DNA from: Schmidtea nova | Taxonomy: Eukaryota | Length of the DNA: 63,856 bases | Direction: 5' to 3' | Assembly: GCA_044892505.1 (NCBI GenBank) | Contig: CM097882.1 | Span: 167,586,001-167,649,856 of the forward strand | Shown: in pieces, positions 32,334 through 44,400 of the stretch | Position numbering within the stretch: the first letter of the stretch is position 1 | Layout of the letters: each line of letters opens with the position of its first letter | Made by a program: the position numbers and the translations under genes | Notes under the pieces: model-generated | The model's database searches: none | What the model saw: the letters and a program-made list of their open reading frames with translations, nothing else | Told to the model about the DNA's origin: nothing

Positions 32334-32459
32334 ATGGAATTAGCACAAAATTTGATATTGAATGAAAGTGCATTGTTAAAGCTTTCAAATGACAAACGTC
32401 CAGTTTTCATTTATGAATGGTTAAGATTTCTCGATAAAGTTTTACATGTTGCAAATAAA
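32334..32459 (+). CDS. HEATR5B: HEATR5B coding exon 1
   Basis: ATG directly after a tttag acceptor; WLRFLDK motif. Confidence 0.93.
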
Positions 32460-35400
32460 GTAAAATTAACTTTATAAAACAACAACAAATTTCTTAAGTT
32501 GTTCTATAGATTGACATAAAAGAGAAACAAGAACATATATTAAAAATATTACTAAATCAACTTGAAAAATCACCGGGACCAAGTACAAGAACATTGATAG
32601 CACGAAACCTTGGAACGCTATTCAATGTTGGTGAAACCTATTCATTGCATTTGGCAATAAATACGTGCAATGACTATGTCAAATCTAAAGATGACAGCCC
32701 TAGTTACTTGCCAACACGGTTGGCTGCAATAGCTGCTTTAGGGGAAATCTATCACAAGCTTGGCCGAATGGTTGGTCGATCATATGAAGAAACAGTTTCT
32801 GTATTGATTAAATCACTTAAACAGGTTGGTCACATTATTTTTGTTTTTAAATAATTTTCAGTGAAATTTACATTTAGAGAAAGAGGTCTTTTAACTATTT
32901 TTGTTCTATTTGTACGATGAGTTATTTAAATTTTTATTATTGTACATTACGATGGTTCAAAGGTAAAAGTCACTAACTACATTTTCGACGAAAATGATAT
33001 TATTACATGCATGACTTTATAATTTATTAACCTCTAGTCGTGTAAAATTATTTTTCTATTTTTCCTTCATTATAGTGAGATTTTAGATATGAAAAACTCA
33101 CTGAATAAAACTCACTAATTTCTTAAAATTCAACAATTAAAAGTCATTTTAACATTTGGTGAGTTTTTGCAGAAATAATGTAGTTAGCGACTTTTACCTT
33201 TGAACCATCGATTAGTCGAAATCTTATGAGATATTTTTAAGTTTATTTACTATAAAATATTAAATTGTTTCAATTGTGATTGGTTTAGTTGAGTTTTATC
33301 TTTACATAATATTTTTATTGATAATTTTAATCATTTAATTTAGGTGTAATTAAGTTATTTTTAAGTTGATTTTTTAATAGACTTAATAATGATGATAAAT
33401 ATTATTATTATTAGTAATATTATTATTATTATTATTATTATTATAATAATAATTATTATTATTATTAGTAATATTATTATTATTAGNNNNNNNNNNNNNN
33501 NNNNNNNNNNNNNNNNNNNNNNNNNNNNNNNNNNNNNNNNNNNNNNNNNNNNNNNNNNNNNNNNNNNNNNNNNNNNNNNNNNNNNNNNNNNNNNNNNNNN
33601 NNNNNNNNNNNNNNNNNNNNNNNNNNNNNNNNNNNNNNNNNNNNNNNNNNNNNNNNNNNNNNNNNAACNNNNNNNNNNNNNNNNNNNNNNNNNNNNNNNN
33701 NNNNNNNNNNNNNNNNNNNNNNNNNNNNNNNNNNNNNNNNNNNNNNNNNNNNNNNNNNNNNNNNNNNNNNNNNNNNNNNNNNNNNNNNNNNNNNNNNNNN
33801 NNNNNNNNNNNNNNNNNNNNNNNNNNNNNNNNNNNNNNNNNNNNNNNNNNNNNNNNNNNNNNNNNNNNNNNNNNNNNNNNNNNNNNNNNNNNNNNNNNNN
33901 NNNNNNNNNNNNNNNNNNNNNNNNNNNNNNNNNNNNNNNNNNNNNNNNNNNNNNTTAGTAATATTATTTTTCTTAGNNNNNNNNNNNNNNNNNNNNNNNN
34001 NNNNNNNNNNNNNNNNNNNNNNNNNNNNNNNNNNNNNNNNNNNNNNNNNNNNNNNNNNNNNNNNNNNNNNNNNNNNNNNNNNNNNNNNNNNNNNNNNNNN
34101 NNNNNNNNNNNNNNNNNNNNNNNNNNNNNNNNNNNNNNNNNNNNNNNNNNNNNNNNNNNNNNNNNNNNNNNNNNNNNNTTGCATAGTTTATTAAAATATA
34201 ATAATAAATTTTAAGCGTTAATACTTTTTTCTCAATGTTGATTTGAAGAAAAATATTTTGATCTTAAAAAATATCCTGATAACTCCAATGTGAAATTCTT
34301 TCTAAATGATTTCTACTTCCTTCTGAATATTTTCATTCTCCCGAGTTCTGATTTAATATAAATTGTATAAACTAATTATGACTCTTATTTACATAAATTA
34401 GCGAATTAGAAGGAATTCCCTATAGGAGTAGCGTTCTAAACACTTTCATATGGACTGTTTTGTCCGTTATTAATATTGTCATTAGGAGTTGAACATGAAT
34501 TTGAACAATAAAAGAAAAATTGATTTTAATTGCATCAGAGAATTATTTCTTTTAAATTATATTTAAACACACGTGACTGGTTATAACTAGTATAATAATA
34601 AATATATATTATTATACTATTGTTTTCATGAAAAATGCTGTGATTTGGATTTTAAATACGGTATCAAACATGAGTATCATATATTGTTTGTTGTCCATAT
34701 AATTATTTATTATTTATTTGAAAAATTTGTCGTGCCCAACCCAGTTTTCTTTATATAAGTGTCGGGACAACTGGGGTGAATGTTTTGCAAAGTTTTGTTT
34801 TATTGTTTGTTTGTGTTTGCATGCCTCTTTGTAATACAACACAAATATATAAATAATAATAATATTAATAAAACAACAATATTTCATCAAATTTCATAGC
34901 AATGTAAAAATTAACCGTTAAAAAGTAACTTTTTCTAATATAACTTCTGTTAAATTTTATACGCTCTAGATCCTTTTAATTTTATTATTTATTATTTATT
35001 TATTATTTCCTTTTTATTTTATATCCTTTTTATTTTTTGCTATTATTATTTATTTGTTTAATTTATTGGTATTCTAATGGAATTGTTTTGATATTTTTTG
35101 TGGGTAATAATGAAAATATTTGAAATTGAAAACTTATCAAAGTTCACCAAAATTAAAAATATTGATGATAATATTTATAAATTTTAACATTTTCTCACAA
35201 ATATTAAGAAATGTATTTATTAATTAAAACCAATTAAATTTGTTTTGTTTATCTTGATTTTTTCGGACTGTAGATCAATATGCTTATTTCTCTTTGGCAT
35301 ATATGGATTGCCGAATAAGCAGTGAGACTCGTATATAAATAAATAAATGAACATAAATATATTTCGTATTTACAATAAGCAAGTAACATAGGGCTTCTCA

Positions 35401-38400
35401 AAATAATTTCCATTTACATCGACACATTTTCCTATGGTGTAACGAGGTTTCGAAAGGCAATTTTAAAGAAATTTCGAGACTTTTCGCCAATAAAATGTGT
35501 CATTGCATCTTCCAAATCGTCTTTTGTGCGAATTGCTGGTATCGCTGGGATTTTTGAGTTAATTAAACAAGTAAAAGTTTAATGGCGCCAAATCTGGACT
35601 TAAGGGAAAATGGGGAAGCACCCTGTACACAATTCTCAATTATGCCCATTGAAACTGCACTTGTGTGAATGGGAGCGTTATCGTGTAAGTAATAGACCCC
35701 ACACACCATGTTTTAGCTTTGGAGCTTCCTTGTTTCTTGTACAAGTTTGGAGTAGTAGGATATGTTAATTAGAACTCCACTTTCTGCAAAATCAGACAGA
35801 ATAAGGACACTAGACTCCCAAAACACAGTCAACATGAGTGCTTTTCGGTGACTTATCCATGACATCATCTTCTTAGAACAGACCTTACCAGACTATTTTC
35901 ACCATTCAGATTGCCGTTTAGACCGTGGAACATATAGTGAAAGTTGTGTCTCATCCATTGTCATAATATTATCAAAAAAACTCTTTCCAACTTCGTCCAA
36001 AATTTGAAGGATCTTATTATGTTTTACCTAGTTGTAATGATGATAATTTATTTAGTTGTATATTGATGTTAGTAATGAGTATGTTTGTTGTGGAAGAAAT
36101 TGCAGAGCCCAACAGCGTCTCCGGTAAAATGTGTCGGGACAGTTGGGGTGAGTGCTATATACAGTTGTGTGAATGCGTGGGTGTGTATGTAATTGTGATG
36201 TATGCTCGTATATATATATATATATATATATATAACAAACAACAAAATTTAACTATAAACTTTATTTAATTCCAAAGAAAAAACACTACTCACGAAATGG
36301 GCTTATTTAATTTTCGACTGTCTCTTTGATTTTTCTTATCTTCTATCAATATTCTCGATGGAAAAGAAAATAGATATTTGTGGTTCTGGCTTTGTTGATG
36401 TTTTTTTCTAGCTTCTATTCCTTTAGATTTATTTCTTTAGTAAGAAAATTCTTATTCTTGGTTTTCTTTTTAGCTTGTTTCCGACTTTCTATTGTTTCTA
36501 TAGTTAATTTATTCGTCTTTTGTATTTGGAATTTGTATTTTCTAATCGATTATCAATTATTTAAATAATGTATGATAATTCATATTATTTTGATTTTTAA
36601 AATTTTTATTCTCATTTTAAATCTTATTATCCTCGAGGCATGACAAAAACAAAACATAGGGGGGTTATCCGGCGCCCGCAAGAACGATCACCATAATAAT
36701 TACCGCGGCAATAACAAACATAATAATGCTACAACAATAATAATAAAAAATATATATACAGCATTAACAGTTCTCTTCGCAACTCTGCAAAGATCGATTT
36801 TACATTTCAGCATTTAAAAAAAAGTGTTACGAAGTGAGACCCTAATTTTCTTATGCCACTTTCTCTGAGTAATGTATTAATAGTGCCTTTACTCACATTC
36901 AGGCGCATTGTTAGCTGTCTGGTAGTAATTTTCCTCTCGGACTGAAAGATTTTTCTCAGATCTTACTTTACATTTTCTTTGATTTCACTAGGCTGTCCTG
37001 GCTTTTCCTCATCATAAACTGAGGTTCTATCACTCTGGAAGTAATTGTATCAATAGTAAATTGTTACTTTTGATGGGCACTTACCAACATAAAAAGCACT
37101 CTGTTCTGTATTGACTTCTCTACTCTTGCTTTTCATAAAGAGAAATCGAATAACTTATGTATGACTTATGAATGACTTATCGAATGTACTTATTTACATT
37201 GCACCCTTTTTCTGGACATTTTAAAATAAGTGCTAATATTTCTTAATTAATGTTTAACTGATTAAAACAAATGCCAGTATATTTACCTAAATACACGACT
37301 GAATATATATTTACAGTTTGGTTTATTTCATTCATTCTCATTACATATATAGGCTGAATGAATGAAGATAAATGAAATCGTAAATAACAGATCAAAGGTG
37401 AAGAAAATAAAAGATTTTAACGATTATTAGATCTAGAAAAAGTCCAAAATAATTTTCAGATATAAATAGCATTTAATGATGAAAATAAATCATAAAATAC
37501 ACTTGGAATATTTTGCGAATACGAAGTGGTATTTCTTTTAATAATTTTACATGGTAAATAATTATTCAATCGTATCTATAAAACAACACATTTCTTTGAT
37601 ATATATTTTTTTTTACATTTTCACTTTTATATTTAACACGAAATTGAAGTTATATTTAGTTGATTGACATGTGGTATATTTTGGTAGATGGTTGTCAACA
37701 CCTGCATTATATAGCGCATTGGGAATTTTGTTTATTTTTTTCAAATTATTATTAATGGAAAATTTTTACCTTCGTATTAGTTTTCATTTACCGCTAATAA
37801 TAAGTTACCAATGAAATTGGTGTTAAAATTCTTATAATTTTATTATAAAATTATAATTTTTAATTTAAAGTATATTTTCTTTATTCTACAACATGAGCTC
37901 CCAAACTATGATAAAAGTTTGAATAATATTTTTTTACCACGTATAATATTAAATTATTTTTTATGTGATGTAAATCTTACAAAGTTCGAGAATCACTGTT
38001 CTACAGCGATGTTTTCTGACAAATTTTAGGTGCAAATAGACTGTTTATTATAGATAATTAATTTTAAAAAATCCCACAACGGTATCTATGAATAATTTTA
38101 TTAGATAAATTTGATATCAATTATATTTTTAATACAATTATGTCCTCTTCTGGTTACATTGGACCCTTTCTGTCAATTTTCAATAAGGATTTTTTATTAC
38201 TATATTACATACGCTTAAAATAAATGTTCTTTTCCTATGTTTTTTATTTTTCAAAGTTAGATTTTCATATAAATATATAATTTTTTATCAATTAAGTTGA
38301 ATTAACTTTAAAATATTTTATTGAAAAACTGAAAAAGAACTGTCACTGAATTAAATTTGGTATCTTTAGACATGTTATTATGTAAATAGTGTTGCTCATA

Positions 38401-41400
38401 TCAAATCTAGTGACACAAAGTTTATTAACCCTTTAAGCGCCATAAATACGTTAAGTCGTTCTGTATTTCCGTGCGCGCAACGCTATCCATACAAAATAAT
38501 CCCGTAAACTCGGTTCACTCTGTACTTATTTTCATTAACTAATATCGAGTGTTTTGTGTGACATAAAATGTTTAACACATCGTGACATCTCTTGAAAATT
38601 CCCAACCTGTAATGCACGACCGTACTAATTATTTGCGGTTAAATAAGTAAAAATACTTATTTATAAAATATTTACTTATGAAAATACAATCAAATTTATT
38701 ATTCTTTAATTTTGCATTCACGAGACTATTTTAACTGAATTCGTTATAAAATGAAGATAATATTGTTCTCTTAAATTAAGCGTGGTGGTCAGGAGAAAAA
38801 AATAGAAAGCAATTTCTAAATATCCTGTTGTGCTACCTTCTATTATTGTCTATAATTCTTTATCTGTCCTTGTTGGTCCAGAATAGGGGTTTTAATTATT
38901 TTTAAGTGTTAATATTAATGCTTTAACTTTTATTAGTTTTATAGAATATTTTAAAATTGACATTCAATTGTTTTCATTAGTTTTAGGAAGCAACATTAAT
39001 CAACGTATCTTCTTGAACTCTGACAGAAACCTGTTTGTGGGTACTCATTAACACTAAAGGAAACTGCATAATTTTTCAAGATATTTTTAATGTGTTAGGG
39101 ATATACAAGTTTTCTCTCCATATGTTTCTTATTAAATAACTTCCATCCTGCAATATTGGAACTTGATTTTATAACACAATTTTCTTGATTTTGATTCACA
39201 AATAAGTGAAATAAGTCTTGAACACAGTCACTTTGAATAATTTTCAGAGAGGTAAATCTTTCTTTGAACAATTATCCTTTTAGTAAATGTAACAAAGAGT
39301 TAATATGACCCAATAAATTTCCCACCTTTCACTGACTAAAATTAAAGTATTTCGAAAAATGTCAATTTTAAATGACATCTCCAACTCTTAAATAGCAAAT
39401 TCACCAATCACTATGGATATATTTATCTTTTTTCTTTGGGTTTCCTTAATAAAACTAACAATTTTATAATAAAATCCATTCTAATTCTTTGCTTGTCATT
39501 TTTTAATCTCTTGTCAACAATTAAATTTTATTTTCTACCTCGCATTGACTGATGTTTTAAATTAATTTTTAATTTATTATTTAATATTTATACATTTGTG
39601 CCTCATAAGGTCCACATCAATTTAAAATTGTTTGATACAAATTTAGATTATCAATTACTGCTTGTTTCCACCCCCACTCCGAAACATGTTCACTTTTTCG
39701 CTTGTAATTCAGTTTATTTTAATTTTTATGTAAATAATTATGTATTATGTTTAAACTTAATAGGTGACATGGATTTCACACTAGCCCTTAGTTAAATTAA
39801 AAATAAAAAAAATGTAATGACCGACAGTAATTACTAATACCATCATATTTGGTATGTTTGATTTTTTTCCGGCTTCCAAAACATCTCCATTAAAATTTTG
39901 GACGTTGAAATTTAGGACGTTGAAATTAAGCAGCTAAAATTAAACGATTTTGATGCTTCTCATTGTGCCAATATTTTCATATTATCAATTGTAATTTAAG
40001 ATCCATTTTTCATCATACCTGACTATGCGATGCAAAAATGGTTCAACTTCATTTAATTGAGCATGGTTAATGTACGCTTATAGACGTCTTAATTTATGAC
40101 AATCTTTTAAGTCATGGTGAATTCATTTTAAGTTTTTCGCTTGCCTATGAGTTGCAAATGGTTTGCAATGGTTTGATGTGAAACAATAAATGCAGCATTG
40201 GAGTTCTTGATTCATTTTCCAGAGTGGGCTATAAATCTTGATCGTCAATTAAAGTGTCAGTCGATCTTTCTTGATCTTCAAAGCTAAAACTATTACTAGA
40301 AAGATGTTGAAACCAGAATCTGACTGTTCGTTCGATAACATAAGCATCAGGAAATTTAGAATTTATATTCCTCTCCACTTCAGCACTGTTGTGGGCCAAT
40401 TTAAACTCGTACCAAAATAAAAGTCGAAAATCGTCCATGTTTAACTAAGTAAAAATAAATTGTAAAACAACATTACGACAAAAAATTGTTTTATAATAAG
40501 TTGCATACTTGGAAATTTACCGAGAACTATACGTAATGGGTGTGGAAAAAACGCCACAACTGTGAAGACTACAACGTAATCGGCAACTTCATACTTTATA
40601 ACCTAATATTTATAATATTTTATAAAGCTTGATTTGCATAACAAATTTCAAAAAAAATTACGAATTAATTTAGAGGAAAAAATTGATTATCTTTGAAATA
40701 ATAATTTCATTCGTCTCATTCTTTTAATAAATAATAGAATAAATGTAAATTATTGTTCACTATTTCAATTAGTTTGTTTTCATTTTATTTTATTATGCAA
40801 ATTTCATTTAATTGAAAAATCTTAACAATTGTGATATCTTTGTGTCAGTATCAATTTAAATTCAGTTTTCATTTGTATGGGTTATAAAATTTTGTCGTTT
40901 TCCTATTCTATTAAATGAGATCTTGTGGATTTCAATCTAATTTAAATGATCAGGATATCGATATCACAGAATTTTAGCTAAATTAATTTAGAGGTCTGTN
41001 NNNNNNNNNNNNNNNNNNNNNNNNNNNNNNNNNNNNNNNNNNNNNNNNNNNNNNNNNNNNNNNNNNNNNNNNNNNNNNNNNNNNNNNNNNNNNNNNNNNN
41101 NNNNNNNNNNNNNNNNNNNNNNNNNNNNNNNNNNNNNNNNNNNNNNNNNNNNNNNNNNNNNNNNNNNNNNNNNNNNNNNNNNNNNNNNNNNNNNNNNNNN
41201 NNNNNNNNNNNNNNNNNNNNNCGATTGATTTCTTTATTTTTACGAAGCTTCTTTTACTCATAGCTTTTAGTTTCCAACTTTTTTCCACCGACCGCAACAG
41301 CTCGATGACTAGCTACAAATCCACTGGGATCGGTTTTGAATAACAGTGGCTTATCCATCTCCTTATCACAAGAAAATGCGATTATTGAACAGCCTAATGG

Positions 41401-44400
41401 CATCATTGCAGCTGATTGAATGTACAATTGATTAATATCGGCAATACATCGACAAGTCATGTCACAGGACAGTTCGCATTTAAATCGTGCAGCTTCCATT
41501 TGTGCACGGCATACTTGCGATCCGCAATCAGGAATCATTCCGGTCCTAACGCAACCGGTACTTTCAGTTATGTTAAATAATATTGTAGCTGAGATCTTTT
41601 CATTCATATTATCTGGGACTTTTCTTTGTGTAGCAACTACACCACAATCATTATCTCGAACACCAACAGAAATTAATCCATCTAACGCAATCGCTTTAAA
41701 TGCATAGTCGTCCTGAAATAATCTGCCTTCGGGTGAAAAAATTGTCATATTACGATCAAAGGCACTTGAATTCAAGAACATAACGGAAGTCCAAATTCCA
41801 ATGTTTATTTCCTAAATAAATCCCAAACGAAACAAAATCAAAATCCAAATCGCATTAATTAATTCCAATAGTTCGAAATCAAAAAGTACACATTAATTCA
41901 TAAATTCACTGACACAGTAAGCAAAAATTCAAATAGTCCCAATTACCAAACTTTATTCCATTTACAATGCCATTAGCTTCCAAATTAATTCAACGAAAAG
42001 CTAAATAACTCCACTCAGAAAAAAATTTAAAATCCGCCCTAAATAAATCAATTAATTAATTCAGTTAAACAACTCAATCAGAAAAAAATGTTTTTAATTA
42101 AGTTCCAAAATTCCACCCATTTATCCAATTTTTCACACCCAATAATTCCCTTTTTAAATTAACATACCCAAAATAATTACAATTAAACTCAATAAACAAA
42201 ATCCAAATCCATCTCAAAATAAATCAATTAAATCCGTCAAACAAATCGTTAACTATCTTTCGTTCCATAATTTATCTAAAAATCTCATTCTTTCTGGGAG
42301 TTCTCTATTCCATGAATCATAATCATACAATCCGAGTTAAATTATTGATTGGCGATATTTTGACGCTGTCGTAATTAAAGGTACGAGTGCACATAACAAG
42401 CGGCTGCTTCGTGGATATAATAAAGCATACTCTAAGTCTTCAAAGGGGATGTGAGACAATTTCAGATGCTCTTCCAGCATCAGATACAATCCCAAACCTT
42501 GGAATGCTGCACTGATGAATTGTACTAATTGGATAAGCTCGGTGCAATTATTCAGTGTTTGATAATCAATTTCTGAGACGTTTCCTAGAAACCATTCATC
42601 GAATGTTCGGATAAATTGCTGATGTCGGCTTTTGTCTTGCCATTTTCGAAATTTTATAACTAAAAAATCGATCGGATCCTGCTGGAATTCAGTGTTGTCG
42701 GAAAACATTGAGGAAATAGTTCCGAATTTCTCCATTTCATCTAACATTGCTTTGATTGATGTTACCAATCGGATGTCGGTACTAAATGCTCGGTCTGTAC
42801 ACCGACGCTGCAGCATTCCGCTTTCCGCTATTTCCTGATATTTAGTTGCCAATTTGCCCATTTTTGAATCACAGCCAAAATATCGATGACAATTAAATAG
42901 CATAAGACGAAAATCACACATAAACTCCTTGATATCGAGATAATCTGCACTTTCCATTTTATCCTGCATTTCATTGAGACATATTGGTTCTTTGACAATG
43001 CTTGTATAATCATTTAGATGGAGCTTTTTTGGATCAATTGGGTTTAAAAATGGACGAGTAATAATTGAATAACTACTAGACATGATGCTTGTTAGGATAT
43101 TGCGAGCACAATTCGTTTCAATCGACGAATTCATCATAAATTAATTAGAGTTAGTGATAAGACCTTCTAACGGCTTCCAGGCTCGTCCTACAATCTCTCA
43201 CAGCGATCAAGCACCCAATTAATTATTTTAATTATTATTTTAATTATTTAAATTTTTATTACTCTTTTTATTATAAATATTAATATTCTTATCATTATTC
43301 TTATTATTTTATTTATTTCAGGCTGAATCACAAACTAGATGTCAAACAATGTTGACCTTGCAACATGTTGTGATTGGACTAGGTTCAGCTGGCATTGGTT
43401 GTCATAAAGAAATCTTAAAGGTTACCAGATCTTGTCTTCTTGATCGATCAATGATTGTTAGAAGTGTGGCTTGCAAAGTAAGATATTTTTTGTATTTATT
43501 ATTTAATTGTTTTTGATATTATATGCAGTTATATTAATTTAATTTAAACATTATATTTAAAACCCTTTTTATTTTTAGTTTACAAAATATTTGGGATATT
43601 AAATATAGTAATTTTTCGAGCTAAACTAACATGCGTCATGATTTGAGTTGGAAAATCCCGACTTCGGCTTGTAAAAATAACGATTGAAAATAAATTATGT
43701 TTCACTATTGATTCGGAAATCTGATAGTATACACATGTAATTGTGTAGATATATAATATCACTATTTATGGTGTATGATTCATTTCCGCAGTATTAGAAG
43801 ATCTAGGATAGGATATAGAATTTAGCATAAAACTTGTTTGTCTTCTAAGGTTTTCAATGGAAACATTGGCTTTATTGGCCATCTTTTTAAGATCGAAATA
43901 AACATTGACGAGAAAGGCTAAACATTTTCAACTTTATTATTATATAGTAATAACGCAAAAANNNNNNNNNNNNNNNNNNNNNNNNNNNNNNNNNNNNNNN
44001 NNNNNNNNNNNNNNNNNNNNNNNNNNNNNNNNNNNNNNNNNNNNNNNNNNNNNNNNNNNNNNNNNNNNNNNNNNNNNNNNNNNNNNNNNNNNNNNNNNNN
44101 NNNNNNNNNNNNNNNNNNNNNNNNNNNNNNNNNNNNNNNNNNNNNNNNNNNNNNNNNNNNNNNNNNNNNNNNNNNNNNNNNNNNNNNNNNNNNNNNNNNN
44201 NNNNNNNNNNNNNNNNNNNNNNNNNNNNNNNNNNNNNNNNNNNNNNNNNNNNNNNNNNNNNNNNNNNNNNNNNNNNNNNNNNNNNNNNNNNNNNNNNNNN
44301 NNNNNNNNNNNNNNNNNNNNNNNNNNNNNNNNNNNNNNNNNNNTAAATTGAAATTCTAATTGTAAATTACAATTTAAAGTTTAAAATATCACTTATTTTA

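Follow-up and report, generated by a model that had tools for sequence, protein, structure and literature searches.

A clipped solo LTR in a HEATR5 intron of Schmidtea nova belongs to a BEL/Pao-type family that carries a spliced leader and exchangeable host-mRNA 5′ ends

The DNA analysed here (the window) is a stretch of 63,856 nucleotides from Schmidtea nova (assembly GCA_044892505.1, contig CM097882.1, positions 167,586,001 to 167,649,856 of the forward strand), in which intron 2 of a HEATR5A/B gene holds, in antisense orientation, a cassette with pieces of two other host genes. The cassette is a 5′-clipped solo long terminal repeat (LTR) of a retrotransposon family that we call BEL/Pao-type by its domains, without claiming formal membership. 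Its parts, which include a spliced leader (SL) and two host-derived segments (slots 1 and 2), are given below with the flanking exons.

41222..43262, minus strand: solo LTR of the SL-bearing BEL/Pao-type family; ~25-30 bp absent at the 5′ end, ~20 bp at the 3′ end extending into N
43175..43262, minus strand: constant LTR head, U3-like (unique 3′ region), 5′-clipped; left boundary approximate
43135..43174, minus strand: full spliced leader of type B, 40/42 nt, ending in ATG, with no GT donor after it
42246..43134, minus strand: slot 1, from the 5′ portion of a spliced host mRNA for a bromodomain protein; contains two stops and starts right after the parent's tttag acceptor
41782..42245, minus strand: T/G-rich linker of ~465 bp; a likely poly(A) region, in view of two AATAAA (41952-41957, 41804-41809)
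41231..41781, minus strand: slot 2, from the 5′ portion of a spliced PSMA6 mRNA; shares its frame with the ubiquitin-Gag open reading frame of the family
32513..32824, plus strand: exon 2 of the host gene HEATR5; left boundary by tblastn
43322..43478, plus strand: exon 3 of the host gene HEATR5; intron 2 is 32825-43321

HEATR5 exons were placed by tblastn on both sides of the cassette (32334-32459, 32513-32821 and 43322 onward), which bears out the antisense position in intron 2 given in a preliminary description of this DNA. The same description had reported two intronless host-gene copies head-to-tail on the minus strand, with an SL and a linker of about 470 bp, and the open reading frames (ORFs) and domains are indeed found there: a bromodomain ORF at 42337-43140 (PF00439, E 1e-16 in a profile search) and a proteasome-alpha ORF at 41254-41811 (matches to PF00227 and PF10584), both on the minus strand and joined by a linker that measures ~465 bp (42245-41782). 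It was right that the cassette adjoins exon 3, but the distance is ~60 bp, the element extending to ~43260, and not ~100 bp. It had seen neither poly(A) nor a target-site duplication (TSD); the former is not expected in an LTR, and the latter is unreadable here, with the 5′ end clipped and the 3′ end entering N, yet the family does have 5-bp TSDs. The label KIAA2026 for the bromodomain piece is weak and unconfirmed, with PF23450 at E 0.011, below the cut-off, and no longer homolog at E ≤ 1e-15.

Both host-gene pieces in the window lack introns that are present in their parents. In slot 1 four parent introns are gone (one small exon matched roughly) and identity to the parent at C3:68.12 Mb is 96-97%; slot 2 has lost two parent introns, is ~92% identical to its parent and has a nonsense codon at 41254-41256. 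For the proteasome piece of a sister copy, the best homologs are PSMA6 proteins from flatworms. The window LTR is 95% identical to the sister copy L002 across 2066 bp, and the family's 3′-terminal motif is found in it, adjoining the last readable base before the N stretch. No match to either of the family's internal regions was obtained by blastn against the whole window, and the window copy, an LTR without internal region, is absent from the 23 sites at which an LTR end is followed by a primer-binding site. Contigs from four public runs (one study) span the exon-3/LTR, bromodomain/linker and linker/PSMA6 joints, and the same two cargos occur in six dispersed sister copies, which together exclude a misassembly; these contigs have Tn5 adapter ends and are uninformative on expression or RNA ends. 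An Rfam search of 39-45 kb of the window gave no match. The window copy is a decaying solo LTR and is not likely to have a function of its own.

The search for further copies that the preliminary description had proposed leads to an LTR family of more than 1,000 copies. Exact matches to a 15-mer across the head/SL junction number 1,236 in the genome, those to a 29-mer across the same junction 362 and those to a terminal 21-mer 340, each against a control of 0; a DNA search for the cassette returned 2,824 candidates (40 scored), and a Proteasome_A_N profile gave 711, with all 150 that were scored passing the cut-off. The order of parts in the family LTR is a head of ~105 bp, a full SL, slot 1, a T-rich linker, slot 2 and a short terminus. 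The element termini that had been left for definition are the TG..CA ends of the LTR (length 0.5-2.6 kb), which other copies display together with TSD, primer-binding site and polypurine tract. The primer-binding site (PBS), TGGTAGCAGAGCG, lies behind 5′ LTR copies at 23 exact sites and shows an 18-nt complementarity to an array of tRNA-Met(CAT), and the polypurine tract (PPT) lies ahead of 3′ LTR copies at 150 sites. Among 38 solo copies called by regular expression, 13 were dropped for a false 3′ end, and 22 of the 25 that were kept have an exact 5-bp TSD (12 of the 15 outside microsatellites, the 10 inside microsatellites being uninformative), as do five full elements. A non-LTR element with a microsatellite tail is ruled out by the TSDs, PBS and PPT, and the (AAT)n flanks are target sites; the region upstream of L014 was tried as an internal region and rejected. 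Insertions are frequent in (AAT)n/(ATT)n microsatellites, as in other BEL/Pao-type families. The tRNA-Met genes stand in tandem, with a 458-bp unit, from C1:510.09 Mb onward (L254-L256), and the tRNA-Met 3′ motif has 1,034 matches across the genome.

Eleven full elements have LTR pairs that are 97.7-100% alike, with identical cargo within each pair. While pol is absent from most full elements, the pol-bearing L236 (~10.3 kb, LTRs 99.84% alike, 95% identical to the 5′ internal region of the pol-less L193) has a single ORF with an HSP90 fragment, ubiquitin, DUF1759, RVT_1, Peptidase_A17, Integrase_H2C2 and DUF5641, in that order; for a protease domain there were only weak matches, from sister families. 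A second copy with pol is L264, and one cargo is shared by pol-bearing and pol-less elements (L264, L268). Seven element units sharing LTRs form a tandem array with a period of ~5.3 kb at C1:139.08-139.11 Mb (L194, L195, L282-L286). Elsewhere LTRs adjoin a second, inverted LTR (L042/L071, L073, L089, L129, L287), for which self-insertion or autointegration is possible.

The leader in the window matches two type-B SL RNA genes of the same genome (L106, L107), which have the same exon plus a GT and an Sm-like site; the call rests on these genes and on general features of planarian SLs, and we take the leader to be of planarian type. Three SL types are encoded in the genome, by six SL RNA genes at C2:408.6-411.7 Mb (L106-L111) that have a GT donor and an Sm-like site. 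Of the 23 sites with an SL followed by GT, six are these true SL genes, which lack the head, and the other 17 are heads with cargo. LTR copies do not qualify as SL RNA genes, cargo standing directly behind their SL, and the DNA upstream of the true SL RNA genes is unrelated to the LTR head, the window head included, which is also found with 33-34 other cargo clusters. When 3′ LTRs were chosen by the PPT and the first 13 nt alone, 30 out of 30 carried the SL, at +96 to +112. Because all of these LTRs, selected blind to the SL, carry it, and because 1,236 junctions are exact, the SL is a fixed part of the LTR. Short duplications and deletions occur at the head/SL joint, and type C was not found among 128 LTR heads. 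According to one study, flatworm SLs end in ATG (PMC12582326).

What follows the SL varies. Sampling by similarity to PSMA6, by the terminal motif, by SL+GT and by patterns at the junction gave 128 distinct heads, which fall into 64 clusters by their post-SL sequence, 52 behind SL-A, 12 behind SL-B and none mixed, and five further cargos from the 30 LTRs chosen blind to the SL bring the total to at least 69 mRNAs. Host Pfam families other than proteasome are matched by 23 of 63 cluster representatives (one or two of the 23 being slot 2, not slot 1), with matches that include Ku, NOP5NT, NDUFS1-type Fe-S, EF-Tu/G, SMC, Forkhead and zf-TAZ. Mature, trans-spliced host mRNAs are the source of slot 1, which holds their 5′ ends: all three cargos whose parents were traced (bromodomain, C3:68.12 Mb; EF-Tu/G-type, C1:313.75 Mb; NDUFS1-type, C2:394.57 Mb) start at the base directly after a host AG acceptor and have their introns removed, all three parents being split by introns. 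Heads that are only 2-4 nt apart carry different cargo or SL type, and heads with the same cargo are up to 24 nt apart; the SL is therefore the exchange point, and its type goes with the cargo rather than the head. The 5′ joint of the cargo has SL homology, which amounts to 19 nt across types. Post-SL sequences recurring behind an AG in other LTR linkers, which would point to self trans-splicing, were found at none of the loci compared. All eight bromodomain copies contain stops. In the bromodomain parent one exon is tandemly triplicated (C3:68.125-68.127 Mb, L128), with a GT donor at the matching end only in the third.

Slot 2 holds PSMA6 in the window copy and, in other subfamilies, a piece that is presumably PSMA4-like by its sequence (L132-L134, L138-L145), an FHA protein (L021-L024, L191, L193) or an FKBP protein (L186-L192); some slot 2s are mosaics of several pieces. 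The recurring proteasome/ubiquitin theme may be due to chance. The PSMA6 parent lies at C1:208.74-208.84 Mb, where there are three nearby copies (L177-L179), and two of its introns are gone from the LTR copy. Divergence from the parent is 13% at synonymous and 6% at non-synonymous sites for the PSMA6 copies, and 4.5% and 2.3% respectively for the bromodomain copies; by the difference at synonymous sites the captures were separate, that of PSMA6 being the earlier. Stops are absent from 16 of 29 PSMA6 copies, and, judged by its divergence, the piece is not conserved as a subunit of the proteasome.

In young elements one ORF of 1190-2570 aa opens in slot 2, crosses the LTR end and the PBS, and then passes the HSP90 fragment into ubiquitin and Gag, with the PBS-encoded peptide present in 12 of 13 long ORFs. 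Among 60 terminus contexts, 53 align to PSMA6, and all but one of these (52/53) are in the Gag frame, with at least seven junction lengths. Slot 2 likely supplies the start codon of the ubiquitin-Gag ORF. The motif LRLRGG occurs in 6/6 SL-family ORFs, and ubiquitin is present both in the SL family and in all seven pol-bearing ORFs scanned outside it. Capture in slot 2 looks to extend across the whole clade. In general, deubiquitinases cut at ubiquitin GG ends, and host enzymes likewise cut at ubiquitin in pestivirus polyproteins; in the present elements such cleavage by the host is a prediction. Several families without the SL (L217, L219-L235) also have a tRNA-Met PBS, ubiquitin before Gag and ORFs opening inside the 5′ LTR, and their leaders vary, one being a prenyltransferase piece (PF00432) and one weakly PSMD13-like.

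The linker bears on where the RNA of the element might begin and end. In 11 of 16 LTRs, where shuffling predicts 2.4, an AATAAA precedes PSMA6 by 60-260 nt, and slot 2 would accordingly fall in U5 (the unique 5′ region). The shortest young family has its AATAAA just 35 nt after the SL, which favours an RNA start at the SL. The start is predicted either at the SL, which would then be the beginning of R (the repeat region), or in the linker, which would leave the SL in U3, and we lean slightly towards the SL. A linker motif, GTCTGTGTGCGC, is present in 21 of the 64 SL-bearing LTRs, often as two inverted copies, and recurs at the start of sister LTRs without the SL (L227, L231); it is a candidate promoter element.

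Taking these observations together, we think it probable that the window holds a clipped solo LTR whose family gained its host SL and swappable host-mRNA 5′ end by a slip of reverse transcriptase (RT) and an SL-guided return. The unit is an LTR that consists of a head, the SL, the two slots with the linker between them, and a terminus, and slot 1 was copied from a mature SL-bearing mRNA. As the anatomy suggests, RT copying the LTR would jump from the linker to a co-packaged SL-mRNA, reach its SL end and re-anneal to the element's own SL, leaving new cargo in both daughter LTRs; exchange across SL types would be possible because 19 nt are common to all three. The long ORF opens in slot 2 inside the LTR and passes the PBS to the HSP90 fragment, ubiquitin and Gag. 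Slot 2 would provide mainly a start codon and an open frame and would be removed by host deubiquitinases at the ubiquitin GG, and because the leader would be cut off there, its content would be free to vary. At HEATR5 intron 2, recombination between the two LTRs of an insertion would have left the window copy as a remnant. A fuller version, in which the SL is the start of R, strand transfer samples trans-spliced mRNAs and the polyprotein is made on a disposable host leader freed by ubiquitin cleavage, we put forward more tentatively, as slightly less likely than not. The intron also contains a Mariner/Mos1-type helix-turn-helix fragment (window 40232-40444, minus strand; PF17906, E 2e-8).

Several points weigh against this proposal. 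The 128 heads are a non-random sample, and four older elements (L091, L073, L059 and L060 regions) have discordant or rearranged LTR pairs, which DNA-level recombination explains equally well. At the joint of slot 1 and linker, microhomology is ~2 nt in the one cargo examined. Three cargos (L100-L103, L112, L114) are alike only for the first 13 nt after the SL. This suggests that an older cargo was overwritten from a point just within it, and implies that some exchanges do not use the SL. The in-frame junctions of slot 2 share ancestry and amount to ~7 independent events, two sister ORFs have no clear ubiquitin-end motif, and pN/pS (transition bias uncorrected), at ~0.45 in PSMA6 and ~0.51 in the bromodomain piece, does not separate the slots. 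The occurrence of GTCTGTGTGCGC both at sister LTR starts and in SL-LTR linkers favours a second start in the linker, and with slot-1 AUGs and stops ahead of the Gag start, one RNA from the SL is hard to reconcile. We infer the RNA start, poly(A) site, packaging and cleavage all from DNA anatomy.

Discordant LTR pairs, such as that of L091, are what one would look for if the same element had received its cargo at the DNA level, with SL homology allowing cDNAs of SL-mRNAs to recombine with an LTR already in the genome, and the next round of retrotransposition carrying the change to both LTRs. Heads and cargos recombined at the SL fit this route too, and introns would likewise be absent; however, all 11 LTR pairs with more than 97% identity are concordant, a second, non-homologous DNA joint would be required, and RT strand transfer accords with the slips seen where head and SL meet, so that we regard DNA-level entry as unlikely. 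The exact start of cargo at host acceptors could also arise if read-through RNA of the element served as the trans-splicing donor, placing head and SL onto acceptors of host pre-mRNAs before the chimera was reverse transcribed, and a gain of SLs by trans-splicing of retrotransposon transcripts is proposed in the accessible part of PMC12582326. This is less probable still, since LTR copies have neither SL-RNA intron nor Sm site (17 heads among the 23 SL+GT sites) and since the SL type changes with cargo on near-identical heads, which is unexpected from a fixed donor.

The preliminary description had inferred an RNA-mediated origin with template switching during retroelement reverse transcription, and the loss of parent introns and the LTR family uphold this. 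Its further idea of one single event, whether retroposition of a polycistronic RNA or of RNAs once joined, would suit two intronless copies lying head-to-tail with an SL ahead, but is refuted: synonymous divergence differs threefold (0.13 for PSMA6, 0.045 for the bromodomain), PSMA6 sits behind many other cargos, and the parents are unlinked and on different chromosomes (C3:68.12 Mb and C1:208.7-208.8 Mb), which speaks against an operon. Also excluded, and least likely of all, is that the cassette is a Pack-type DNA transposon, arose by segmental duplication or was misassembled. A DNA transposon might be suggested by the 5-bp TSDs and by termini that form a short, imperfect inversion (TGGT..ACCA), but introns have been removed and PBS, PPT, paired LTRs and gag-pol are present; the copies are dispersed with different flanks and contigs span the joints; and a segmental duplication from intronless parents, named earlier as the outcome that would overturn an RNA origin, is contradicted by parents that bear introns and lie on different chromosomes. 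Beyond what had been described before, the whole cassette is an LTR, slot 1 is exchangeable and PSMA6 is in the Gag frame.

Gene capture by LTR elements, BEL/Pao included, is known; new here are the fixed slot defined by an SL and the host-derived Gag leader. The proposal offers a route from SL trans-splicing to gene capture, in which a universal 5′ tag would give the homology that RT otherwise meets by chance, and makes the LTR a two-slot exon-shuffling device with a host-derived Gag start codon. The cargos allow trans-splice sites and preferences for SL types to be listed from the genome, with no need of RNA data. Copies of the family inflate planarian gene counts and can confuse read mapping, the design of RNA interference and the annotation of SL genes. 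If the SL does act as a sampler at the start of R, more than 1,000 SL-tagged mRNA 5′ ends would be spread through the genome, and the copies would give rise to small RNAs matching host genes and would preserve, as fossils, which trans-splice sites and SL types were used in the cells that feed the germ line. Our literature search, with subscription papers, Repbase and supplements outside its reach, gave no account of SL-bearing LTRs with exchangeable mRNA cargo.

The pol-bearing elements resemble the Belpaoviridae (PMC8742986) in their LTRs, PBS, PPT and single gag-pol ORF with DUF1759, RT, Peptidase_A17 and integrase. In that profile of the International Committee on Taxonomy of Viruses (ICTV), however, the primer is tRNA-Arg/Gly, the LTR measures 0.2-1.2 kb and the genome 4.2-10 kb, whereas the present family uses tRNA-Met, has LTRs of 0.5-2.6 kb and reaches ~10.3 kb in L236; we therefore speak of a BEL/Pao type and not of a formal member, because primer tRNA and LTR length depart from the profile. 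Also unlike BEL/Pao, the present ORF opens in the LTR and has an HSP90 fragment and ubiquitin ahead of Gag. Planarian BEL/Pao elements have been catalogued as the Flow superfamily (PMC3118150), and the accessible text of that catalogue has 0 occurrences of the word 'ubiquitin'.

The remaining comparisons draw on the accessible sections of the papers cited. LTR-mediated retroposition in animals, including chimeras of Pao BATUMI and BEL18_AG, was described by Tan et al. (2016, PMC5131818), whose retrocopies are partial, intronless mRNA pieces placed in LTR elements by double template switches, include two-gene chimeras and were later amplified as non-autonomous elements; the present cargos are likewise partial, intronless and without poly(A). 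Those retrocopies, however, replace internal parts of the ORF, with microsimilarity (median 6 bp) at scattered points, while here both cargos lie within each LTR, slot 1 is fixed behind a full 42-nt SL and turns over (at least 69 mRNAs from a small sample), and the second cargo leads the Gag ORF in intact elements. In parasitic flatworms SL-like DNA without SL-RNA features is also associated with retroelements, LTR and LINE (PMC12582326), but those SLs are partial, and were read as trans-spliced element transcripts and discarded, whereas the present family has a full SL at a fixed LTR position with host mRNA behind it. Dinoflagellate retrogenes (PMC6050394, PMC5585692) share with it a genomic SL that marks the copy of a trans-spliced mRNA; they are described as relict-SL retrogenes, in contrast to the LTR cargo that is the feature of the present family. 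Cytopathic pestiviruses (PMC2850149, PMC13517609) similarly carry host ubiquitin in a polyprotein ahead of a functional protein, but these are dead-end variants of an RNA virus, while in the present elements ubiquitin is fixed.

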